From an uncultured Muribaculaceae bacterium (GTDB lineage Bacteria > Bacillota_I > Bacilli_A > RF39 > UBA660): a DNA stretch of 57,726 nucleotides. Under the pieces are notes generated by a model. That model was given only the letters and a program-made list of their open reading frames with translations, was not told where the DNA came from and made no database searches. Numbering within the stretch: the first letter of the stretch is position 1; each line of letters starts with the position of its first letter. Shown piece by piece: positions 6,876 through 38,737 of this stretch. The stretch is from contig CAYQDO010000002.1 of assembly GCA_964416365.1 (NCBI GenBank), forward strand, positions 1 to 57,726. Direction: 5' to 3'. The translations under genes and the position numbers were made by a program.

Positions 6876-8075
6876 ATGGAACTACTAGCTAATAAAATGA
6901 GACCTAAAAGTTTAAAAGATATTATTGGTCAAGAACACATAGTGGGACCTAATAAAATTTTAACAAATTTAATTAATAATAATAAATTATTCTCGATAAT
7001 TTTATATGGAACACCAGGTACTGGAAAAACTTCACTTGCTGAAGCGATTGTTAATGATCTAAAAAAAGAATATCGATTGCTTAATGCCGTTATAAATAAT
7101 AAAAGTGATTTTGATATTGTTATCGAAGAAGCGAAAATGAATGGTGAAATGATTTTAATAATTGATGAAATCCACCGTATGAATAAAGATAAACAAGACC
7201 TTCTTTTACCCTATATTGAGAGTGGTTTAATAATTATTATTGGACTTACCACTTCTAATCCTTATCATTCAATTAATCCGGCTATAAGGAGTAGATGTCA
7301 GATTTTTGAGGTTACTCCTCTATCTTCTGATGATATTAAAAAAGGATTAAAGAGAGCTTGTAAATATTTAGAAAATATTAAGGTAACTGATAAAGTATTA
7401 GACATGATAATCTCTTCTAGTTCTGGAGATTTGAGAAGCGCTATAAATTTACTAGAGATGGCTTATTACAGTACTAATGATCATGTCATAACTAAAGAAG
7501 TTTTACTAACTATAAATACCAAACCAGTAATCTATATTGATAAGAATGACACAAATTATTATGATACGATTAGTGCTCTGCAAAAATCAATTCGGGGTAG
7601 TGATGCTAATGCTGCCTTATATTATTTGGGAGTACTTTTAGAGGCTGAAGATTTAGATATTATTTTTAGAAGACTAACAGTTATTGCATATGAAGATATA
7701 GGTCTAGCTAATCCGGGAATTGGACCTAAAGTAATGGCTGCTATTGAAGCAGTAAATATGTTAGGCTTACCAGAAGGAAGAATCCCACTAGCCACAGTTG
7801 TTATTGAAATGGCCTTGTCACCTAAAAGTAACAGTGCTATATCAGCAATTGATAATGCTTTAAATGAAATAAGCAATGGTAATATTAATCCCGTACCAAA
7901 ACATCTTAAAACCAGTAGTAAAGATTATAAATATCCGCACAATTATAAAAAATACTGGGTTGAACAGCAATATTTACCAGATAATTTGAAAGACAACAAA
8001 TTTTATTATCCAAAAATAAACAATTATGAAAATAATTTAAACAAAATAAATCAAGAAATGAGGAATAATAAATGA
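6876..8075 (+). CDS. rarA: Replication-associated recombination protein A (RarA/MgsA AAA+ ATPase)
   Basis: Walker A GTPGTGKTS, Walker B IIDEIHRM, and the C-terminal MgsA motif ISALQKSIRGSDANAALYY. I prefer the ATG at 6876 (GGTGAAG SD) to 6846. Confidence 0.92.
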   Translation: MELLANKMRPKSLKDIIGQEHIVGPNKILTNLINNNKLFSIILYGTPGTGKTSLAEAIVNDLKKEYRLLNAVINNKSDFDIVIEEAKMNGEMILIIDEIHRMNKDKQDLLLPYIESGLIIIIGLTTSNPYHSINPAIRSRCQIFEVTPLSSDDIKKGLKRACKYLENIKVTDKVLDMIISSSSGDLRSAINLLEMAYYSTNDHVITKEVLLTINTKPVIYIDKNDTNYYDTISALQKSIRGSDANAALYYLGVLLEAEDLDIIFRRLTVIAYEDIGLANPGIGPKVMAAIEAVNMLGLPEGRIPLATVVIEMALSPKSNSAISAIDNALNEISNGNINPVPKHLKTSSKDYKYPHNYKKYWVEQQYLPDNLKDNKFYYPKINNYENNLNKINQEMRNNK

Positions 8076-13159: not shown

Positions 13160-13228
13160 TATAACCAACCTCTTTATTCTTTATTATTATAAAAAAATTA
13201 TATCATAGTTAATATAATTTTTAAATAG

Positions 13229-13254
13229 CAAAAAAAAGAGATTATCGGTCTCTT
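13229..13254 (-). terminator. Intrinsic terminator of the 37-aa micro-ORF
   Basis: On the minus strand: AGAGA-ccgataa-TCTCT followed by T8. Confidence 0.6.
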
Positions 13255-13355
13255 AGTAAAACAATTAATAAGATAAACATTATTAAGATTAATATTCCTA
13301 ATACAGAATATATGATAATATCTTTATTATTAATTAAAAACTCTTTAATTAGCAT
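13242..13355 (-). CDS. 37-aa single-TM micro-protein, absent from the supplied ORF track
   Basis: Sequence MLIKEFLINNKDIIIYSVLGILILIMFILLIVLLRDR. An AGGA SD lies 6 nt upstream and TGATATAAT (extended -10) about 30 nt upstream. It has its own terminator. Confidence 0.5.
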   Translation of the reverse strand: MLIKEFLINNKDIIIYSVLGILILIMFILLIVLLRDR

Positions 13356-13428
13356 GTCTATCCTACTTTCTATTTGCTTCAATTATATCACTTATTTTAA
13401 AAATAATAGACATTCTATGCAACTTGAC

Positions 13429-13470
13429 GCTGAAAAAAAGACATTACTTTTTCAATGTCTTTTTTTCAGC
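13429..13470. terminator. Strong terminator ending the hisS...gatB operon
   Basis: Perfect 17-bp inverted repeat GCTGAAAAAAAGACATT / AATGTCTTTTTTTCAGC with an 8-nt loop, 27 nt after the gatB stop. Confidence 0.8.
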
Positions 13471-13496
13471 ATATTGTGAGCTTGTCACTTTACATA

Positions 13497-14924
13497 TTAA
13501 GATAATTTATTCGTTAAAATCTCTTTTACTTTAACTGGATTTGCTTTTCCTCTGGTTTCTTTCATAGTTTGTCCGACAAAATAATCAAATAAATTTGTTT
13601 TGCCATTTTTGTATTCTGTAACCTGATTTGGACTATTTGCAATTATTTTATCAATAATAGCCTCTAGTTCATCTTCATTATCTAGTTGCTCCATACCATA
13701 TTTTTTAATAAGCGTTTCTGGTTCTTCTTGTTCTTCTAAAACCTTAAAGAATAAATCTTTAGCTTGTTTAGAACTTATAGAACCTTTCTTTAAAGGATCT
13801 AGGATATTATATAAACGTTTTGGTGTAATAAAAAATTCATTTATTTCCATTTCATGTTTATTTAAATATCCCATTATTTGGGTTGTAATCCAGTTAGTAG
13901 CATCTTTAGGATCAATGCCTAATCTAATACATTCTTCAAAATAGTCACTGTTTTCTTTAGTTTTAACGATAACACCTGCATCATAATTAGAAAGACCATA
14001 TTCCGTAATATAGTTATTTTTCCTTTCAAGTGGTAAAACGGGAATTTCTTTTTTTATTTCCTCTAACCATGCTTTTTCGATTTTGAATTTCGGAATATTA
14101 GGATCAATATAATATTTATAGTCAATACTTTCTACTTTTTCTCTCATTCTAATAGTGGTCGCAGTTTCATCGTCCCAGCGACGAGTTTCTTGTATAATTT
14201 CATCTTTTCTACCAGAATTGATTAAATTGGATTGACGTTCTATTTCGTATAGAATTGCTGCGTGAACGTTACTGAACGAATTAACGTTTTTAATTTCAAC
14301 TTTAGTACCTAATTCGGTAGCACCTTCTTCCATTAAAGAAACGTTAACATCACATCTAATTTGACCTTTTTTAGTATCAGCTTCTGAGCAATCCGTATAC
14401 TTATAAATATTTCTTAAATATTCTAGGAACGCTACCGCTGCTTCTGGAGAATAAATACAAGGATCCGTAACTATTTCTAGTAGTGGTACTCCACTACGGT
14501 TATAGTCTATTAATGAATAATCAAAAAAGTGATCAAGTGATGCTGTATCTTCTTCAAGGTGAATATCATGAATATAGACAGGAACTAATTTTTCTCCTAC
14601 TTCAATATCAATTTTACCATTGATACCAACTGGTTTAGTACTTTGCGTAATTTGATAACCTTTTGGTAAGTCTGGATAATAATAGTTTTTACGGTCAAAT
14701 ACTAGCATATCAGGAATTTGACAATTTAAGCATATAGCCATTTTAATAGCTTTCTTAACCGCTTCTTTGTTGACAATTGGCAAGATTCCTGGGAAAGCCA
14801 TATCAATCGCTGTAACAGTCGAATTTGGTAAATCACTATAAGTATTGCGTGATTTAGAAAATACTTTTGAGATAGTTTTTAATTCACAGTGCATTTCTAG
14901 TCCAATAACTACTTTTAAAGCCAT
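13497..14924 (-). CDS. gatB: Asp/Glu-tRNA amidotransferase subunit B
   Basis: Full-length GatB (VIGLEMHCEL, C-terminal YqeY-like domain). The ATG at 14924 overlaps the gatA TAA as TAATG, with an AAAGGGG SD. I do not use the track's GTG at 14933. Confidence 0.95.
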   Translation of the reverse strand: MALKVVIGLEMHCELKTISKVFSKSRNTYSDLPNSTVTAIDMAFPGILPIVNKEAVKKAIKMAICLNCQIPDMLVFDRKNYYYPDLPKGYQITQSTKPVGINGKIDIEVGEKLVPVYIHDIHLEEDTASLDHFFDYSLIDYNRSGVPLLEIVTDPCIYSPEAAVAFLEYLRNIYKYTDCSEADTKKGQIRCDVNVSLMEEGATELGTKVEIKNVNSFSNVHAAILYEIERQSNLINSGRKDEIIQETRRWDDETATTIRMREKVESIDYKYYIDPNIPKFKIEKAWLEEIKKEIPVLPLERKNNYITEYGLSNYDAGVIVKTKENSDYFEECIRLGIDPKDATNWITTQIMGYLNKHEMEINEFFITPKRLYNILDPLKKGSISSKQAKDLFFKVLEEQEEPETLIKKYGMEQLDNEDELEAIIDKIIANSPNQVTEYKNGKTNLFDYFVGQTMKETRGKANPVKVKEILTNKLS

Positions 14925-16351
14925 TATTTCCACCCCTTTGCTATTAAATTTTTATAGCCTAGATGATTTTCAATGGCATATGCTATATTTAAAACATTAG
15001 CATCATCTTTGATTTTTCCAGTAATATTAATACCTACCGGAAGTTCATTTATCAAACCATTTGGTATAGTTATTGAAGGATAACCACCAAAGTTACCTAT
15101 CGCTAAGAATTGTTCATTTTTTAAATATGCTGGTACTTCTTCACCAAATTTAGGAGCAGGTTCTAAGCTAGCTGGTAATATTAACCCATCATATTTTTTA
15201 AATAATTTATTCATTTCATCAATGATTAATTTTCTAACCTTAGCCAAATTTATTAAATATTTCTTTTGATTTTCTCTTTTTAAAACAAATGAACCAATAA
15301 TAAATCTTCTCTTAATAAGTGGTGAGAAATTATTTGTACGATAATCGAACATCATTTCTTCAACGGTGGAACCTTTACCACGCGGACCAAAGATTAAACC
15401 GGTTAAGTTAGACATATTACTAGTAGCTTCAGCGCAAGCAATTGTAAAATATATTGGATAAATAGCATCTAATAATTTTTGATCAAATGTTTCTTCCACT
15501 ATTTCTATACCAAGTTCTTGGCATTTTTTAATAGTTTCTGCAAATAATTCTAAAGTTTTTTGAGTTTCAGGACGAATATCTGAATAATTATTAGGATCAC
15601 AAATATTTTTAAGATAAAATAGTTTCTTACCTTTAACATTACTATCTAAAGATTTAAATAAATTGATATTTGAACTATCCCAAGTTGTCATATCATAATC
15701 ATCTTTGCCTTTTATGATATCGGTAACAATTGCAGCATCTTTAACACTTCTGGTAAGTACACCGATGTGATCTAAAGATGAAGCAAAGGCAAATAAACCA
15801 TAGCGAGAAATCATACCATAGGTAGGCTTATAACCAACGACACCACAATAGGCAGCTGGTTTACGAATTGAATCTCCAGTATCACTCCCTAAAGCAAAAG
15901 GAACAACACCTGCGGCAACGACAGCTGATGAACCTGCTGATGAACCTGCCGTATGTCTATTCGTATCCCATGGATTTCTGACGGTACCCGTATGGCCAGT
16001 TGTACCAGAACCACCCATGCCTAGTTCATCCATGACGGTTTTTCCAATATTAACGGCTCCAGCTTCTTTTAATTTTTTAATACAAGTTGCATCAAAAAAT
16101 GGTACATAATCTTTTAAAGAATTAGAAGATGCAGTTGAAAGAATTCCAGCAGTTGATAAATTATCTTTAGCGGCATAAGGAATACCAGAAATTAAAGTTT
16201 TAATTTCCTCATTTGGTTTGGCGTCTTCTAAGATTGTAACAAACGGATTTAAAATATCTTGAGCTTTTTGAGCTTTATTAAAAGCTTCTTTTACTAAGGT
16301 TTCACTAGTAGTTTTTTTATTTAACAATTCTTCATGTAATTTTTCTATCAT
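14924..16351 (-). CDS. gatA: Asp/Glu-tRNA amidotransferase subunit A
   Basis: Amidase signature GGSSGGS-like (TAGSSAGSSAVVAAG) and GSDTGDSIRKPA. Confidence 0.95.
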   Translation of the reverse strand: MIEKLHEELLNKKTTSETLVKEAFNKAQKAQDILNPFVTILEDAKPNEEIKTLISGIPYAAKDNLSTAGILSTASSNSLKDYVPFFDATCIKKLKEAGAVNIGKTVMDELGMGGSGTTGHTGTVRNPWDTNRHTAGSSAGSSAVVAAGVVPFALGSDTGDSIRKPAAYCGVVGYKPTYGMISRYGLFAFASSLDHIGVLTRSVKDAAIVTDIIKGKDDYDMTTWDSSNINLFKSLDSNVKGKKLFYLKNICDPNNYSDIRPETQKTLELFAETIKKCQELGIEIVEETFDQKLLDAIYPIYFTIACAEATSNMSNLTGLIFGPRGKGSTVEEMMFDYRTNNFSPLIKRRFIIGSFVLKRENQKKYLINLAKVRKLIIDEMNKLFKKYDGLILPASLEPAPKFGEEVPAYLKNEQFLAIGNFGGYPSITIPNGLINELPVGINITGKIKDDANVLNIAYAIENHLGYKNLIAKGWK

Positions 16352-16647
16352 TATCCCACCACCTTAGGAACTTCTATTTGACGGTTGTCTTTAGCTTTGC
16401 AGTTAGATAGAAGAGACTCTATATCTGTACCTTCTTCAAAATCATCATCTTCTCGTAACTCATTTTCAAATAAATCAAAAGGATGAGTTTGGGGTTCTAC
16501 TTCTTCTAAACCATCAATTTGAGTAATTAAATCCATTTGTTCTTTTAAATAATCTAATTCTTGTAATACAGTATCTACTTCTTCATCAGTAACTTGAAAT
16601 AAGAGATTAGCTGCTAATTCATTTATTATATCTTTATTAAATTTCAT
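16351..16647 (-). CDS. gatC: Asp/Glu-tRNA amidotransferase subunit C
   Basis: 98-aa acidic protein with LEEVEPQTHP and REDD motifs. It overlaps aspS by 4 nt and gatA by 1 nt. Confidence 0.9.
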   Translation of the reverse strand: MKFNKDIINELAANLLFQVTDEEVDTVLQELDYLKEQMDLITQIDGLEEVEPQTHPFDLFENELREDDDFEEGTDIESLLSNCKAKDNRQIEVPKVVG

Positions 16648-18398
16648 TCTTTATCACCCTTTATCAGTGCGATGCCTAATTCATCTAATTGTTTGATATC
16701 TACTTCAGAAGGTGCTTCACACATTAAATCTGATGCTGATTGAGTTTTAGGGAATGTAATGACATCTCTAATATTGTCAGTATTATTTAAAAGCATGACA
16801 ATACGGTCTAAGCCAAAGGCAATTCCACCATGAGGAGGTGTGCCATATTTAAGCGCTTCTAGGAAGAATCCAAATTTTCTCTTTGCTTCTTCATCAGAAA
16901 TACCTAATGCTTTAAATACCTCAGCTTGCATCTTTGGATTATGGATTCTGATTGATCCACCACCTAGTTCATAGCCATTTAATACTAAATCGTAAGCAAC
17001 TGATGAGCAGTTGGCTGGATCATTTAATTTTTCAAGTGATTCTGGCATGGTAAATGGATGATGAGTAGTTACATAACGGTTTTCATTTTCAGAATATTCA
17101 AACATTGGAAAATCAGTAACAAATAAGAAATTATAGGTATTTTCTGGTATTAAATTAAAATCATTACCAATTTTTAATCTTAAAGCTCCTAAAGAGGCAA
17201 ATACTACTTTAGGTTTACCGCAAACAATTACAATTAAGTCGCCATTTTCGACATTAAATTTTTCTTTTATTATTGTTTGAATTTCTGGTTCTAAATTTTT
17301 AGCTATAACTCCACTAAACTCATTATTATCATATTTTAACCAAGCTAAACCTTTAGCTCCATATATTTTAACAAAATCGGTTAAACGATCAATTTCATTA
17401 CGAGAATATTGATTATTTTTAACAACGATACATTTAGCTATACCACCATCAGCGATAGCGCCCGCAAAAACATTCATAGAAGTATTTCTTAATTCTTCAG
17501 TTAAATCTTGTAGTTCTAAGCCAAATCTAGTATCTGGTTTATCACTACCAAAACGATTCATCGCTTCGGTATAAGTTAAACGTGGAAATTTATAATCAAT
17601 GGAAACATTTCCTGCTTCTTTCCAAACATGATTAATTAATTCTTCAGTCATTACTAAAATATCTTCTTGGTTAATGAAACTCATTTCAATATCAACTTGA
17701 GTAAATTCTGGTTGACGATCAGCTCTTAAATCTTCATCTCTAAAACATTTAGCAATTTGATAATATTTTTCAAATCCAGATATCATTAAAACTTGTTTAA
17801 ATAATTGTGGACTTTGAGGTAAAGCGTAAAACATACTACGATTAACTCTTGAGGGTACTAAATAGTCTCTAGCTCCTTCAGGAGTACTTTTACATAAGAT
17901 TGGAGTTTCAAAATCAATAAAGCCATGATTATCTAAATAAGATCTAAAAGCTTTATTAATTTTATGTCTTAAAATCATAATATTTTTTAATTTATCTCTT
18001 CTTAAATCTAAATAACGATATTTTAGAGCAATTTGTTCATTAATTTCTTTATCTTCATAAATATTAAATGGTACTGGATCTGCTTCACTTAAGATTATTA
18101 AGTTATCAGCCATAAGTTCTAATTCTCCGGTTGGAAGATTAGGATTTATTTCATTTTCTGCTCTTTTTTGTAGTTTACCAGTAACTTTAATACAATATTC
18201 ATTTTTTAGACTTTCCGCAAGGGTAAAATCATCTTTTAAAAACTCTCGATTAAAGACAACTTGCAAAAGACCAGAGCGGTCTCTTAAATCAACAAAGATA
18301 ACTCCGCCCATATCACGGCGTTTATTAACCCAGCCATAAACAGTTATTATTTCACCAACTTCTTTAGTTGTAAATTTTCCATTATCGTATTTTTTCAT
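16644..18398 (-). CDS. aspS: Aspartate--tRNA ligase
   Basis: 584-aa class IIb synthetase with FYALPQSPQLFKQ, the insertion (GAD) domain, and GGIAFGLDRIVML. Confidence 0.95.
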   Translation of the reverse strand: MKKYDNGKFTTKEVGEIITVYGWVNKRRDMGGVIFVDLRDRSGLLQVVFNREFLKDDFTLAESLKNEYCIKVTGKLQKRAENEINPNLPTGELELMADNLIILSEADPVPFNIYEDKEINEQIALKYRYLDLRRDKLKNIMILRHKINKAFRSYLDNHGFIDFETPILCKSTPEGARDYLVPSRVNRSMFYALPQSPQLFKQVLMISGFEKYYQIAKCFRDEDLRADRQPEFTQVDIEMSFINQEDILVMTEELINHVWKEAGNVSIDYKFPRLTYTEAMNRFGSDKPDTRFGLELQDLTEELRNTSMNVFAGAIADGGIAKCIVVKNNQYSRNEIDRLTDFVKIYGAKGLAWLKYDNNEFSGVIAKNLEPEIQTIIKEKFNVENGDLIVIVCGKPKVVFASLGALRLKIGNDFNLIPENTYNFLFVTDFPMFEYSENENRYVTTHHPFTMPESLEKLNDPANCSSVAYDLVLNGYELGGGSIRIHNPKMQAEVFKALGISDEEAKRKFGFFLEALKYGTPPHGGIAFGLDRIVMLLNNTDNIRDVITFPKTQSASDLMCEAPSEVDIKQLDELGIALIKGDKE

Positions 18399-18410
18399 TG
18401 TTTCCTCTTT

Positions 18411-19769
18411 CTAAAAGTCACAGTTATTTGGGGTTCTTGGGTATGGAATGACATCTCTAATATTATCTACTCCAGTTAAATAAATCAGTAATCTTTCAAA
18501 TCCCATCCCAAATCCACTATGAACAACACTACCGTACTTGCGTAAATCTAAATACCATGACATTTCCACTGGATTTAAATGTAGCTCTTTCATCCGTTTT
18601 ACTAATTTGTCGTAATTCTCTTCTCTTTGGCTACCACCAATTAATTCTCCAGCTTCAGGAACTAGTAAATCTACAGCGGCAACCGTTTCATTATCATCAT
18701 TTAATTTCATATAGAAAGCCTTAATATCTTTAGGCCAGTTATAAACAAATACTGGTCCATTAAAGTGTTCAGTAATATATTTTTCGTGTTCTTTAGCAAT
18801 ATCTTCGCCATATTCAGGAACAAAATCCCACTGCACATCAGCTTTCTTTAAAATATCTATAACCTCTTTATGAGTTACTTTGGTAAATGTACTAGTAATT
18901 AAATCTTCTAGTTTTTGAATTAAGCCTTTTTGGACAAAACTATCTAAAAAATTCATATCTTCTGGACATCTATCTAAAACTGCTTTAACAACATATTTAA
19001 GCATATCTTCCATGACATGCATATCATCATCTAAATTACAAAAAGCCATTTCAGGTTCAATCATCCAGAATTCACTGGCATGGGTCTTAGTATTAGAATT
19101 TTCAGCTCTAAAAGTAGGTCCAAAAGTATAGACTTTTTTATAAGCTAAAGCAAATGTTTCAGCTTCTAATTGACCAGAAACCGTAAGATTTGCTCTCTTT
19201 CCAAAGAAATCATCCTTATAGTCTGGTTTTACATTTAATTTGTCTATTTCTAAAGTAGTTACTTGGAACATATTACCAGCTCCTTCACAGTCACTTGCCG
19301 TAATTATGGGAGCATGAAAGTAAATAAAACCATTATTTTGAAAATATTCATGAATAGCAAAAGAGGTTACACTTCTGATTCTAAAAATAGCATTAAACAA
19401 ATTAGTGCGTGGTCTTAGATGAGCTATTGTTCTTAAGAATTCCCTTGTATGTCTTTTTGGTTGAATGGGATATGTTTCATCACAATCACCTAATAGCGTA
19501 ATTTTAGTAGCTTGAATTTCAAAAGTTTGGTTTCCTTGGCTTTCAATAACTTTTCCAGTTACTTCAATAGAAGAACCAATTAAAATCTTTTGAATCTCTT
19601 CAAAATCCTTATTTTCATCGGTATAAACTACTTGAATGCTTTTAAAATATGTACCATCAAATAAATCGATGAAACCAAATTTAGCTTGTTTACGATGATT
19701 TTTAATCCAACCACTAATGGTTACTTCTTTACCAATATTATTTTCTTTATATAAATCTTTTATATCCAT
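18411..19769 (-). CDS. asnS: Asparagine--tRNA ligase
   Basis: 452 aa with FRAENSNTKTHASEFWMIEPEMAF and GFGMGFERL. Confidence 0.93.
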   Translation of the reverse strand: MDIKDLYKENNIGKEVTISGWIKNHRKQAKFGFIDLFDGTYFKSIQVVYTDENKDFEEIQKILIGSSIEVTGKVIESQGNQTFEIQATKITLLGDCDETYPIQPKRHTREFLRTIAHLRPRTNLFNAIFRIRSVTSFAIHEYFQNNGFIYFHAPIITASDCEGAGNMFQVTTLEIDKLNVKPDYKDDFFGKRANLTVSGQLEAETFALAYKKVYTFGPTFRAENSNTKTHASEFWMIEPEMAFCNLDDDMHVMEDMLKYVVKAVLDRCPEDMNFLDSFVQKGLIQKLEDLITSTFTKVTHKEVIDILKKADVQWDFVPEYGEDIAKEHEKYITEHFNGPVFVYNWPKDIKAFYMKLNDDNETVAAVDLLVPEAGELIGGSQREENYDKLVKRMKELHLNPVEMSWYLDLRKYGSVVHSGFGMGFERLLIYLTGVDNIRDVIPYPRTPNNCDF

Positions 19770-19780
19770 ATTATTTCCTC

Positions 19781-21043
19781 TTATCTATGTGAATCTAAAT
19801 ATTCAACTAGATTATTAATATTTACTTTCTCTTCTTGTTTAGTTAAATTATCTTTAACATTAACTTCATTTTTCTCTAAATCTTGATCATTTAAAATTAC
19901 TAAATATTTAGCTTTTAAACGGTCGGCAGATTTAAATTCTCCTTTTAAGCCTTTATTTAAATAATCTGTTTCGGTAATAAAATCATTTAATCTTAAGTCT
20001 TGAGCTAAAAAAGCAGCAGTTTCTTTTTCAGAATCAGAAACATACATGATGTATACATCAATATCATCTTTGATAGCAAAGTTAACTCCAGTGTAAGTCA
20101 TGGCCATAACAGTACGATCATAACCCATCGCAAAGCCTACGGATGGAACGCTAGGACCATCTAATAATTCAATTAGACCATTATAACGTCCGCCACCACC
20201 TAAGGCTAAATTACCCATTTCTGGGACATCAGCTGTTACTTCAAATACAGTATGGTCATAATAATCAAGACCTCTAACTAAACGAGGATTCTCTTTATAT
20301 TTAATATCTAATAACTCTAAATATTCTTTTAATTTATTATATCTGTTTAGACTACATTGATTCAAATAATCGATAGTTTTAGGAGCATTTGCTAGAATCT
20401 CTTTTTCTCCATCAATTTTACAATCTAATACTCTTAACGGATTTTTTTCAAGACGTTCCTTGCAATCATCACATAATTCTGCTTTAAAAGGATTTATATA
20501 TTCTATTAAAGCCTTCCGATAATTGTCTCTTGATTCTTTATCACCTAAAGAATTAATATTAATGGTTACATCTTTTAAGCCTAAAATAGTATAAGTATTA
20601 TAAGCTAAACTAATAACATCTAAATCAGCTAAAACATCATCAGACCCAATTAGTTCAATACCGAATTGGGTCAGCTCACGATAACGACCTAGCTGTGGTC
20701 GATCATAGCGATACATTTTCTCATTATAGTAAACTTTAACCGGTTCAGTTTGATTACCATAAAGTTTATTTTCAATGTACCAACGACAAACACCAGCGGT
20801 TCCCTCTGGTCTTAAAGTTAGATTACGATCACCACGATCAACAAAATCATAAGTTTCTTTACTTACAATATCAGTAGCATCACCTATTCCCCTATGAAAT
20901 AGTTCACTTGCTTCAAAAACCGGGGTTTCTATATAAGCGTAATTATATTTTTCACAAATACTACGAAGAATATCATTCACATACATTCTTTTTTGAGATT
21001 CTTCTCCGTAAATATCCATAGTTCCTTTTTGTTTAGTTATCAT
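19781..21043 (-). CDS. hisS: Histidine--tRNA ligase
   Basis: KGTMDIYG, LRPEGTAGVCR, RYDRPQLGRYRE and GGGGRYNGL motifs. I prefer the ATG at 21043 (AAGGAG SD). The track's TTG at 21067 lies in the T-box terminator U-run. Confidence 0.95.
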   Translation of the reverse strand: MITKQKGTMDIYGEESQKRMYVNDILRSICEKYNYAYIETPVFEASELFHRGIGDATDIVSKETYDFVDRGDRNLTLRPEGTAGVCRWYIENKLYGNQTEPVKVYYNEKMYRYDRPQLGRYRELTQFGIELIGSDDVLADLDVISLAYNTYTILGLKDVTININSLGDKESRDNYRKALIEYINPFKAELCDDCKERLEKNPLRVLDCKIDGEKEILANAPKTIDYLNQCSLNRYNKLKEYLELLDIKYKENPRLVRGLDYYDHTVFEVTADVPEMGNLALGGGGRYNGLIELLDGPSVPSVGFAMGYDRTVMAMTYTGVNFAIKDDIDVYIMYVSDSEKETAAFLAQDLRLNDFITETDYLNKGLKGEFKSADRLKAKYLVILNDQDLEKNEVNVKDNLTKQEEKVNINNLVEYLDSHR

Positions 21044-21061
21044 ATTTTCTTCTCCTTTATA

Positions 21062-21272
21062 AAACAAAAAACACCAGCCTATGTAAGGACGAGTAAATAT
21101 ACCCGCGGTGCCACCTTACTTTACTAGTGTACTCTCCTGATTCTTATCGCGAATTCACGTTGTTTTTTAAAAGACTGTTCTTGTTTATATTTCTACTTAG
21201 GCATTCTCACCGGCTAGCCTTCTCTTATAGTAGATTATTATAAACCTCTGTTCTTTCAAAACAATTGCTTCC
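21062..21272 (-). promoter_or_regulatory. T-box riboswitch leader
   Basis: On the minus strand: Stem I with an AGAGA bulge and a GGUGAGA distal loop. T-box sequence AAGGUGGCACCGCGGG (21102-21116). Antiterminator GUAAGG/CCUUAC. A U-run precedes the hisS SD. Confidence 0.85.
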
Positions 21273-21277
21273 CCATA

Positions 21278-21306
21278 ATTTTACTTAAAAATATGGGTTT
21301 TGTCAA
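21278..21306 (-). promoter_or_regulatory. Sigma-A promoter of the T-box operon
   Basis: On the minus strand: TTGACA (21301-21306), 17-nt spacer, TAAAAT (21278-21283). Confidence 0.7.
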
Positions 21307-21316
21307 TCATATTGAC

Positions 21317-23074
21317 TCAGATATTTTGTAAATAGTTATATAAGTCTTCGGCAACTTTAATTGGTATATAGTTTTTAAGTTCGTCTAATGATTTTTCTTT
21401 CATATTTTTAACACTACCAAAGGCTTTAATTAATTCTTTTTTACGCTTATTACCTATCCCAGGAATATTATCAAGAACACTGGCAATAGTGCCTTTACTT
21501 CTAATTTGTTTATGATAATTAATGGTATACCTATGAACCTCATCTTGAATTCTGGTTAAATAATGAAATAGTTTACTAGTTTTATCGATGTTATAAGTCT
21601 CTAAAGAGTCTCCATCAAGTAAATCATTAGTTTTATGATAATCATTTTTTACTAGGCCACATATTTTTATTTTTAAATTTAGGATATCTAGAACCTCTTT
21701 AGTGGCTCTTATTTGATTAATTCCCCCATCGACTATAATTAACTCTGGAAGCTCATCTTTCTCTACTAAAGCGCGATAATAACGTCTATAGATAACTTCT
21801 TTCATGGTGTTGTAATCATCATTTTTTTCTAAAAGAATTTTATACTTACGATAATTATTTTTAGCTGGTAAACCATTTATGAAAACCACCATCCCAGACA
21901 CCGAAAATGATCCAAATAGATTGGAATTATCAAAGACATCTATCCGGGTAATATCAATTCCAATCAGAGCGGATAATTCATCATTAGCTCCGCTAGTTCT
22001 TTCTAATTTATTCATGGCTTTTTTAAAATTATTTTCATGATTAATTTTAGCATTTTCTCTAGCTAATAATAATAGTTTTTTCTTTGGACCCCTTGTAACA
22101 TAAACAAATTTAGTATCAATAACTTTACTTAACATTTCTCTATTAATATCCTCTGATAAATAGATTTCTTTAGGAATTTCTCTTTTTTGATAAAATAAAG
22201 ATATATATGCTTCTAATTCTTCTAAATAGTTATCAGTTACCGCAAAGATATCATTAAATGAACCTATCAGTTTTCCCGTCCTAATAAATAAGATTTCAAT
22301 AGCTAGATAACCATTATCAAAATAATAATTGATAACGTCCATATCTTCTTTATTAAGAAATTGAACTTTTTGTTTTTCTAAAACTACTTTCATATATTCT
22401 AGTTCTCTTTTAAGTTCTAAAGCTAATTCATAGTTCATTTCCTCAGAGTAGTAGTTTATTTTCTCTAAAAGTTTATTTTTAATAATATCTTCATTACCTT
22501 TTAAAAATGATATTATTTCGGTTTCCATTTGATTAATCGCTTCTTCGGGTATTTCTTTAACGCAGTAGCCTAAACATTCGTGAATATGATAATAAAGACA
22601 AACATCCTTAGGCATTCCATCACACTTCTTTAAAGGATATAACCTATTAATTAAATACACTATTCTCCTTGCTGCATAAGCATTGACATAAGGACCAAAA
22701 AGAAGCCTATCTTTATTTTTTTTAATCTTTAAATATCTGACAATTTTTAATTTAGGAAAAGGTTTCTTTTGATACTCAATATAAGGATAACTTTTATCAT
22801 CCTTAAGTAAAATATTATATTTTGGATTATATTCTTTAATTAAATTTAATTCTAAGATAAAAGACTCTAGTTCAGATGAGGTAACAATATATTTAAAGTA
22901 AGCAATTTCACTAACCATTTTGGCAGTTTTACCAGTATTAGTTCCACGAAAATAAGAACTTAACCGTTTCTTTAAGTCTTTAGCTTTACCGACATAGATA
23001 ATGATATTATTAGCATTATGCATTAAATAACAGCCTGGCTTGTTAGGAACTAATTTCAATTCTTCTTTAAACAT
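21317..23074 (-). CDS. uvrC: Excinuclease ABC subunit C
   Basis: 585 aa with an N-terminal GIY-YIG domain (GCYLMHN...IIYVGKA), a UVR domain, and a C-terminal (HhH)2 domain. Confidence 0.95.
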   Translation of the reverse strand: MFKEELKLVPNKPGCYLMHNANNIIIYVGKAKDLKKRLSSYFRGTNTGKTAKMVSEIAYFKYIVTSSELESFILELNLIKEYNPKYNILLKDDKSYPYIEYQKKPFPKLKIVRYLKIKKNKDRLLFGPYVNAYAARRIVYLINRLYPLKKCDGMPKDVCLYYHIHECLGYCVKEIPEEAINQMETEIISFLKGNEDIIKNKLLEKINYYSEEMNYELALELKRELEYMKVVLEKQKVQFLNKEDMDVINYYFDNGYLAIEILFIRTGKLIGSFNDIFAVTDNYLEELEAYISLFYQKREIPKEIYLSEDINREMLSKVIDTKFVYVTRGPKKKLLLLARENAKINHENNFKKAMNKLERTSGANDELSALIGIDITRIDVFDNSNLFGSFSVSGMVVFINGLPAKNNYRKYKILLEKNDDYNTMKEVIYRRYYRALVEKDELPELIIVDGGINQIRATKEVLDILNLKIKICGLVKNDYHKTNDLLDGDSLETYNIDKTSKLFHYLTRIQDEVHRYTINYHKQIRSKGTIASVLDNIPGIGNKRKKELIKAFGSVKNMKEKSLDELKNYIPIKVAEDLYNYLQNI

Positions 23075-37336: not shown

Positions 37337-38737
37337 TTATTCTTCCTTCTCTTCCTTGAAAATTACTTCTTTAGTTGACATTAAGTCTGCTAAAGCATCA
37401 TCTACTGATTGTTTAGTTTTTTCTGACGTCAGATTTAACTCATTAATTAAGTCATCTTCTCTAACTTCAAACTCAGTTTTAGGAATATCTAATTTTTTTT
37501 CTTTTTTATTATTAATTTTTTCTGGTTTACCTTTTTTAGATTTTTTCTTGCCAAAAATAAAGTATGCAGCAAGCCCTATAATAGCAAGACAAATAATACT
37601 AATAATAACAATTAATAATGTTTTATTATTATTCTTCTTAGGCCCAGGAGCAATGACAACCGGTTCTGTCGAAGTAGTAGTTTCTTCAGCTTCCGATCTT
37701 ACGACAGTAATATTATATATTTTTTTATCTTGTGTTTCGGCAGAGGTTACGGTTATAGTTACAACATTTTCACCAACAATTAGATTTTCTAAACCTTTAA
37801 TCTCTACTTTAGCATTTTCATCTTCCGGAGTTGCAATGATATTTAATGCTTCAGTTTCATAGGAAACAGTTAAAGTATAATCTAATTCTTCTTTATCAAA
37901 TTTTTCAGCTAAAATAAAATTCTCAACACTTAAATCTTTTAAAAATGGTGAATTATCGGTTGTTACTCCACGATAGATAATTAAATCATATTCTGAAGTA
38001 TTGCTTCCATCTTCACTGATTGTAGAGATTTTCAATATATTTTTGCCAACGACTAATTCTGGTTTATTTTGATTAAGATAATTTGTACATCCAGAATCAC
38101 ATTTAATTGTCACATTACACATATCACACTTAGTACTTATAGTTAATGATTTAACAGTATCTCTGACATTATAAACTTTGTAACTTGTTTCAGAACTATT
38201 AAACTCTGGTGTCAAATTACCAACTGATACAGATAATCCAGTTAATTTAGCATTGGTACTTTTAGGTTTACTAGTAGTACCAGGCACTAAAGTAATATCT
38301 TTAGAATAATCTGTGCCATTAATTTCATTACCATCTTCATTGGTAAAAACAATATCAGTAATTTTAATTTTAGTTATTATATTAGTAGAAATTAAATTAT
38401 TATTTGTAATTCTCAAGTTGGCTATTTTACTAGATGTAAAAAAGCTTTCTGAATCGGCAATACTTAAAGACGATTTACTTACATTTGCTTCTCCAGCTAA
38501 CGATGATTCTTTGCTTAGATTTAAAATAACCAAACTAGAATCAGAAACTTCAATAGAAAACTCTACTTTTTTAATTTTTTCTCCACTACTCACAGTAATC
38601 ATAATATCATTTGATCCAGTATTTGACCCACTAATTGTTTTATCCCCATCAAATGTTAATGAAGCAGCGTTGACATTTAAAATATTAAATATATATAAGA
38701 ATAATACATAAATAGTTAATTTAATTACTTTTTTCAA
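37337..38737 (-). CDS. Secreted, C-terminally anchored protein with two cadherin-like beta-sandwich domains
   Basis: Signal peptide ...ILNVNA/AS. Two L..LSV..G.L.P.F....Y.V modules. C-terminal TM helix and Lys-rich tail. Confidence 0.7.
   Translation of the reverse strand: MKKVIKLTIYVLFLYIFNILNVNAASLTFDGDKTISGSNTGSNDIMITVSSGEKIKKVEFSIEVSDSSLVILNLSKESSLAGEANVSKSSLSIADSESFFTSSKIANLRITNNNLISTNIITKIKITDIVFTNEDGNEINGTDYSKDITLVPGTTSKPKSTNAKLTGLSVSVGNLTPEFNSSETSYKVYNVRDTVKSLTISTKCDMCNVTIKCDSGCTNYLNQNKPELVVGKNILKISTISEDGSNTSEYDLIIYRGVTTDNSPFLKDLSVENFILAEKFDKEELDYTLTVSYETEALNIIATPEDENAKVEIKGLENLIVGENVVTITVTSAETQDKKIYNITVVRSEAEETTTSTEPVVIAPGPKKNNNKTLLIVIISIICLAIIGLAAYFIFGKKKSKKGKPEKINNKKEKKLDIPKTEFEVREDDLINELNLTSEKTKQSVDDALADLMSTKEVIFKEEKEE

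Follow-up and report, generated by a model that had tools for sequence, protein, structure and literature searches.

The transamidation operon of Clostridium acetobutylicum is described as lying behind an Asn T-box that also reads tRNA-Glu by means of an overlapping GAA (Saad et al. 2012, 2013, as reported in PMC4052509). Synthetase genes that follow a T-box of another specificity form a recognised class (Wels et al. 2008, PMC2494555), and in the same survey no amidotransferase gene had a T-box ahead of it. In Firmicutes, hisS-aspS operons carry T-boxes as well, and that of Staphylococcus aureus has been named a 'histidine T-box' (PMC7927825).

The DNA analysed here (the window, 57,726 nt) is contig C2 of a metagenome-assembled genome (G000; 977 kb in 91 contigs, 27.9% G+C, 89% estimated completeness) of an uncultured, Mollicutes-like member of the gut Bacilli with a genome of about 1 Mb. 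It carries, on the minus strand, a T-box leader followed by hisS, asnS, aspS, gatC, gatA and gatB. The initial annotation named the Asn T-box of C. acetobutylicum as a parallel, and the comparison is apt as far as that operon is described in the cited accounts (PMC4052509, PMC4206432): in both organisms AAC lies within GAAC ahead of an operon with aspS and gatCAB, and the supply of Asn-tRNA would be coupled to the charging of tRNA-Asn. Unlike the C. acetobutylicum operon of those accounts, the present one also contains hisS and asnS, its gatCAB is the operon copy (the genes identified being those of the operon), a Glu reading would be excluded by the A73 of tRNA-Glu, tRNA-Asn has a G1-C72 pair, and the host is an uncultured gut bacterium with a small genome. 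As in the Firmicutes hisS-aspS operons, hisS comes first with aspS downstream, and, as in those operons and in the class of Wels et al., a synthetase is placed under the tRNA of another amino acid. The predicted specifier is, unlike that of the S. aureus type, Asn rather than His or Asp, and the operon is enlarged by asnS and gatCAB. The case is fairly ordinary in these terms, and the leading position of hisS is a local norm; what stands out is the repeated toggling between Asp and Asn, congeners that lack AsnRS yet have G1-C72 tRNA-Asn, and a nested terminator.

Gene identities in the operon were taken from NCBIfam profile matches. The first gene, hisS (histidine-tRNA ligase, nt 19781–21043; TIGR00442, 451 bits), most likely starts at the ATG at nt 21043, which has GGAG ahead of it, while the open reading frame list gives a TTG instead. 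It is followed by asnS (asparagine-tRNA ligase, nt 18411–19769; NF003037, 649 bits), aspS (a bacterial-type aspartate-tRNA ligase, nt 16644–18398; NF001750, 843 bits) and the Asp/Glu-tRNA amidotransferase genes gatC, gatA and gatB (nt 13497–16647; TIGR00135, TIGR00132 and NF004012), all on the minus strand. GatC (43.9 against a curated cut-off of 47.1 bits) and GatA (421.9 against 481.1 bits) both fall just below threshold, and gatB starts at an ATG (nt 14924) inside TAATG. The close packing described in the initial annotation, with spacers of 11 and 12 nt and with genes overlapping by 4, 1 and 1 nt, is correct throughout, and after gatB stands an intrinsic terminator hairpin (nt 13429–13470, minus strand; −25.6 kcal/mol, z −8.9). 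A second hisS and an internal promoter had been named as things to look for: a HisRS search of the genome returned a single match, and promoter-like sites within the operon, where intergenic gaps do not exceed 12 nt, are no commoner than in shuffled sequence. Likewise, no second AspRS was found in the genome, and aspS is present in one copy. These observations support a single leader governing all six genes, which would then be co-transcribed; with one hisS and such short gaps, all six should track the charging of tRNA-Asn.

The leader in front of hisS, which together with its promoter occupies nt 21062–21306 of the minus strand, is about 190 nt long, and its sequence confirms it as a genuine T-box. 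The Rfam model RF00230 matches nt 21082–21268 of the minus strand over its full length (60.5 bits, E = 1.2e-12). This score lies below the Rfam gathering score of 93, so that a default scan at the gathering threshold is empty for the window and the match appears only in E-value mode; seven of the ten T-boxes in this genome are also below 93 bits. The landmarks listed in the initial annotation (promoter, AGAGA bulge, GGUGAGA distal loop, T-box sequence, antiterminator and U-run) are all in place. The sigma-70-type promoter, TTGACA-17-TAAAAT (nt 21278–21306, minus strand), has 11 of 12 consensus matches and is the best promoter-like site within nt 13200–21500. It begins 10 nt past the stop codon of the upstream neighbour, uvrC, which is on the minus strand and ends at nt 21317, and its TTGACA-spacer-TAAAAT layout is kept in the leaders of relatives.

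Stem I (nt 21160–21268, minus strand), delimited by covariance alignment and folding, consists of a basal helix, the specifier internal loop, the AGAGA bulge and the GGUGAGA distal loop. The last two elements, which would serve as a tRNA-elbow platform, align to RF00230 with high posterior probability and are near-invariant among relatives. When the minimum-free-energy fold of the G000 leader was imposed on 16 related sequences, 71.7% of cells were paired, with the best value at slide 0, and 14 pairs were changed on both sides; this support is moderate. RNAalifold applied to the same 16 sequences recovered the distal helix and nothing else. Other parts of Stem I are less regular. The K-turn has its 5' UGA, with UUU in place of GA on the 3' side, and at the S-turn positions of the specifier loop the motifs are degenerate, AGAG and AAG standing where AGUA and GAA would be expected.

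The covariance alignment, which the initial annotation had proposed as the means of fixing the specifier, aligns CAAGAACA with the 3' strand of the specifier loop and places AAC (Asn; nt 21177–21179, minus strand) in the codon slot, with A at nt 21176 as the conserved purine after it; no His codon occurs there. The slot can be calibrated within the genome, since six other T-boxes carry the cognate codon in the same position: AUC (ileS), AUG (metS), GUU (probable valS), UUC (pheS), UCU (serS) and ACU (thrS). The bulge of the T-box sequence gives a second line of evidence. Among the ten T-boxes of G000 only the hisS leader has UGGC, and the variable base of the bulge tracks the discriminator of the tRNA, UGGU going with A73 tRNAs and UGGA (glyQS) with the U73 tRNA-Gly. 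The C of UGGC pairs with G73 and thus fits the tRNA-Asn(GUU) of this genome (C19, nt 5441–5516), which ends in GGGC-G-CCA. Genes for tRNA-His, tRNA-Asp and tRNA-Gln are absent from the 89%-complete assembly, and their discriminators were taken from congeners: G73 in tRNA-Asp, A73 in tRNA-Gln, and, in seven congeners, C73 together with an encoded G-1 in tRNA-His (a search for tRNA-His in G000, G007 and G008 found none). Both tRNA-Glu genes of G000 (UUC and CUC) specify A73, as do those of congeners.

It is therefore very probable that the leader is a transcription-attenuating T-box specific for tRNA-Asn(GUU), with tRNA binding and antitermination predicted from these elements. The preference for Asn over His in the initial annotation holds, given AAC in the slot, the match of UGGC to G73 of tRNA-Asn and the lack of a His codon in Stem I, where a direct reading of nt 21160–21268 found no CAC, CAU, GAC or GAU. 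One of its arguments, that a C73 tRNA-His would mismatch the bulge, stands in part: C73 rather than G73 was indeed found in the seven congeners, but the argument is weaker than stated because C73 is paired with G-1 and because TBDB deliberately leaves discriminator matching unused for His T-boxes (PMC7778990). The codon evidence suffices by itself, even with the C73 argument set aside, for a predicted non-His specificity. The other register that had been offered, CAG for Gln, fails, as tRNA-Gln has A73 in the genus and CAG lies outside the slot and is not conserved; CAA is likewise off-slot, and relatives read AACAAU or AACAAC in this region. The neighbouring frames GAA (tRNA-Glu) and ACA (tRNA-Thr) were also rejected, as both tRNAs carry A73 and mismatch UGGC.

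Downstream of Stem I is a short Stem III of 3 bp only, followed by the T-box sequence AAGGUGGCACCGCG with its UGGC bulge (nt 21100–21113, minus strand), identified from the sequence and the covariance alignment. The antiterminator (nt 21084–21113, minus strand; −13.8 kcal/mol) folds as a helix AAGG..CCUU, a 7-nt bulge and a helix GCGGGUA/UACUCGU, and aligns to the covariance model with high posterior probability. The terminator (nt 21062–21130, minus strand; −23.5 kcal/mol, z −3.9) is of an unusual design variant. Its 8-bp basal helix, formed by ACACUAGU (nt 21123–21130) with GCUGGUGU (nt 21071–21078), encloses the whole antiterminator hairpin and abuts a U6 run, and its 5' strand overlaps Stem III on the 3' side, upstream of the T-box sequence. 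A terminator, an antiterminator and a U-run are all present, and mutual exclusivity would arise through Stem III and not through the 3' strand of the antiterminator. The basal helix covaries in relatives (CCUA/UAGG, CCUUUC/GAAAGG, CACUA/UAGUG), and compensatory changes are found among relatives in the distal, Stem I and terminator helices. The same nested design is seen in the metS, pheS and valS leaders of G000, the loci recorded for it outside the window being C6 (nt 6442–6625), C11 (nt 7465–7661) and C1 (nt 38278–38451); the leaders of the relatives G017 and G023 have a classical terminator pairing instead. Two further T-boxes of the genome stand before genes other than synthetase genes: one at C15 (nt 2170–2340) has CUU or UUG (Leu) as its slot codon and is followed by a 118-aa membrane protein, and one at C81 (nt 1659–1842), with a poorly aligned Stem I, is followed by an open reading frame at the contig end.

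A mechanism can be proposed from this layout. Transcription would start about 7 nt downstream of TAAAAT, and Stem I would offer AAC to the anticodon of tRNA-Asn. An uncharged tRNA has a free 3' GCCA, which would pair with the UGGC bulge and stabilise Stem III and the antiterminator; we infer that Stem III, stacked on the antiterminator with the help of the tRNA, competes with the basal terminator helix. With that helix blocked, RNA polymerase would read into hisS-asnS-aspS-gatCAB. Aminoacylated tRNA-Asn could not pair in this way, and the basal helix would close beside the U-run and stop transcription. The levels of AsnRS, AspRS, GatCAB and the sole HisRS would in this manner be set by the charging of tRNA-Asn. 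Since a T-box senses only whether its tRNA is charged, Asp-tRNA(Asn) would also count as charged.

HisRS searches yielded 40 related genomes and 51 named contigs, the latter comprising gut metagenome-assembled genomes labelled uncultured Bacilli, Tenericutes, Mollicutes or Erysipelotrichaceae, together with Clostridium sp. CAG:594 and Candidatus Faecenecus. A homologous leader occurs throughout the genus and in neighbouring genera, and is kept in 13 congeners. The specifier column of the aligned relatives reads NAC followed by A; 12 genomes of the initial set have AAC and the others GAC. AAC is found in G000, G002–G010 (G007 and G008 among them), G013 and G021 and, of the named contigs, in L177 and L211; GAC is found in G001, G011, G014, G015, G017, G023 and G024, in L173, L178–L183 and L191–L198, and in others. 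The Asp (GAC) T-boxes of relatives such as G001, G011, G023, G024, L173 and L178–L183 have the same promoter layout, UGGC bulge and terminator design as the leader described here, and in some cases the same operon; the specifier differs by one base, GAC versus AAC. A hisS leader in a class-level relative (G030; L034, nt 1253–1454) has GGC in the slot and a UGGU bulge. In three named contigs (L172, L174 and L175) a hisS-gatCAB operon that lacks aspS has a leader about 350 nt upstream of hisS in which promoter, hairpin and U-run remain while Stem I and the UGGN bulge are missing; it looks like a decayed T-box.

The initial annotation considered hisS unusual as the first gene of such an operon. 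Among class relatives the reverse is true: hisS-led operons under an Asp (GAC) T-box are the rule, hisS-aspS generally has an Asp T-box in these gut Bacilli, and, as judged from the leaders, control of a hisS-led operon by a non-His tRNA is the normal state of the lineage. The essential HisRS can, it appears, stay for long evolutionary periods under a signal that has nothing to do with histidine. Asp sensing looks to be the older state, since the class-level outgroups G027, G029, G038 and G039 read GAC, and the Asn leader would descend from the Asp T-box of a hisS-aspS operon by a single G-to-A change in the specifier. Such a switch should be easy, G73 being common to tRNA-Asp and tRNA-Asn; with the discriminator shared, one specifier base is enough, and the T-box can be re-aimed cheaply. 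The well-supported branches of the HisRS tree require no fewer than three changes for AAC, each of them an origin from GAC or a reversion. L177 and L211 provide further independent cases, confirmed by covariance alignment. The specifier region of L211 reads GAAACA where its sisters have GAGACA. L177 has tandem T-boxes (nt 985–1167 and 4700–4886), a GAU (Asp) T-box before aspS and, directly downstream, an AAC T-box before hisS-asnS-gatCAB. All AAC operons seen in full contain gatCAB; among the operons with GAC, some have it and others lack it. One genome with a GAC leader, G011, has an intact gatB and a gatC-gatA interval (L052, nt 4822–5921) of only about 1.1 kb with weak similarity (31%) to GatA; gatA may be truncated in this genome.

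Four other readings of the leader were weighed against these data. The C. acetobutylicum example raises the question of a two-codon T-box, in which GAA and AAC triplets overlap and tRNA-Glu as well as tRNA-Asn could act as inducer. The loop AAGAACA has GAA overlapping AAC exactly as described for that species (PMC4052509, to the extent of the account given there), and GAAC is present in most congeners. A usable second codon would also need a fitting acceptor end, and the A73 of tRNA-Glu mismatches UGGC; nor is GAA conserved, the corresponding positions reading AAUAAC in G002, UAUAAC in G021 and GAAACA in L211, so dual Asn and Glu sensing is quite improbable. No more credible is the idea that the leader still serves as an Asp or a dual Asp/Asn T-box, accepting tRNA-Asp(GUC) through its G73 although the first codon position would form an A-C mismatch. 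Sister leaders with GAC, one base different, do share the same UGGC, and aspS is in the operon. Pairing of specifier and anticodon is, however, the main determinant of T-box specificity, AAC is fixed in two well-supported clades with no polymorphism, and L177 assigns the GAU leader to aspS and the AAC leader to hisS-asnS-gatCAB.

A response to His from a non-canonical specifier position has the least to recommend it and seems extremely unlikely. The leading position of hisS, the naming of the S. aureus hisS-aspS leader as a His T-box (PMC7927825) and the indecisive role of discriminator pairing for tRNA-His (PMC7778990) would speak for it, yet Stem I holds neither CAC nor CAU (the sole CAC is in the Stem III/terminator strand), and the variable base of the slot is A or G among relatives, never C. 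The case is a warning for annotation, in that the specificity of a T-box should not be named after the first gene downstream. Finally, the low covariance score, the degenerate K-turn and S-turn motifs and the loss of Stem I and the UGGN bulge in the close relatives L172, L174 and L175, with their hisS-gatCAB operons, could be taken to mean that tRNA sensing has decayed and that only a constitutive partial terminator or read-through site is left. This too has very little probability, as the functional elements are all intact, are conserved in more than 12 species at 67–92% HisRS identity, and show the compensatory changes in the distal, Stem I and terminator helices noted above. A functional tRNA-Asn T-box is thus preferred.

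The biochemical setting offers a rationale for sensing tRNA-Asn. Searches of the 89%-complete G000 assembly found no asnA, asnB or glnS; aspS and gatCAB are present, as in a transamidation operon, and with glnS missing GatCAB is needed at least for Gln-tRNA(Gln). G001, in which the leader reads GAC, has asnB. Six congeners (G005, G008, G009, G010, G012 and G013) have no AsnRS anywhere in their genomes, hisS being followed directly by aspS-gatCAB, and these six also lack AsnA and AsnB. The AAC specifier is kept in five of them, the leader of G012 being cut off at a contig end. The gene content indicates that these species must obtain Asn-tRNA(Asn) from the operon, by way of a non-discriminating AspRS together with GatCAB, and the operon's role as supplier makes Asn sensing logical; the non-discriminating character of AspRS is suggested by these six AsnRS-less congeners. 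In G000, asnS would by itself be reason enough for an Asn T-box.

Bacterial GatCAB is reported to require a U1-A72 pair on its tRNA (PMC4206432). The tRNA-Gln of the genus has U1-A72, and tRNA-Asn has G1-C72 with G73, both in G000 (C19, nt 5441–5516) and in eight congeners (loci L142–L151). Among the latter are G005, G008, G009 and G010, the four of the six AsnRS-less species from which tRNA-Asn was recovered. The only tRNA-Asn with U1-A72 is an extra copy in G007, on a 4.3-kb contig (L141). Because G1-C72 departs from the U1-A72 rule, the argument from Asn-tRNA supply may apply in G000 to asnS only. The AsnRS-less congeners with G1-C72 tRNA-Asn would be a testable exception to the accepted recognition rule of GatCAB. 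A joint reading of these data, possible but doubtful as a whole, is that the hisS-led operon of the genus is a supply unit for Asn-tRNA(Asn) whose T-box flips between Asp and Asn, that its AspRS and GatCAB make Asn on a tRNA that lacks U1-A72, and that a nested terminator competes with Stem III. A search for asnS remnants between hisS and aspS found none in G009, G010 or G013. In G009 an unrelated open reading frame of about 170 aa (L047, nt 1661–2193) lies between hisS and aspS, and it is decaying in G010 and G013.
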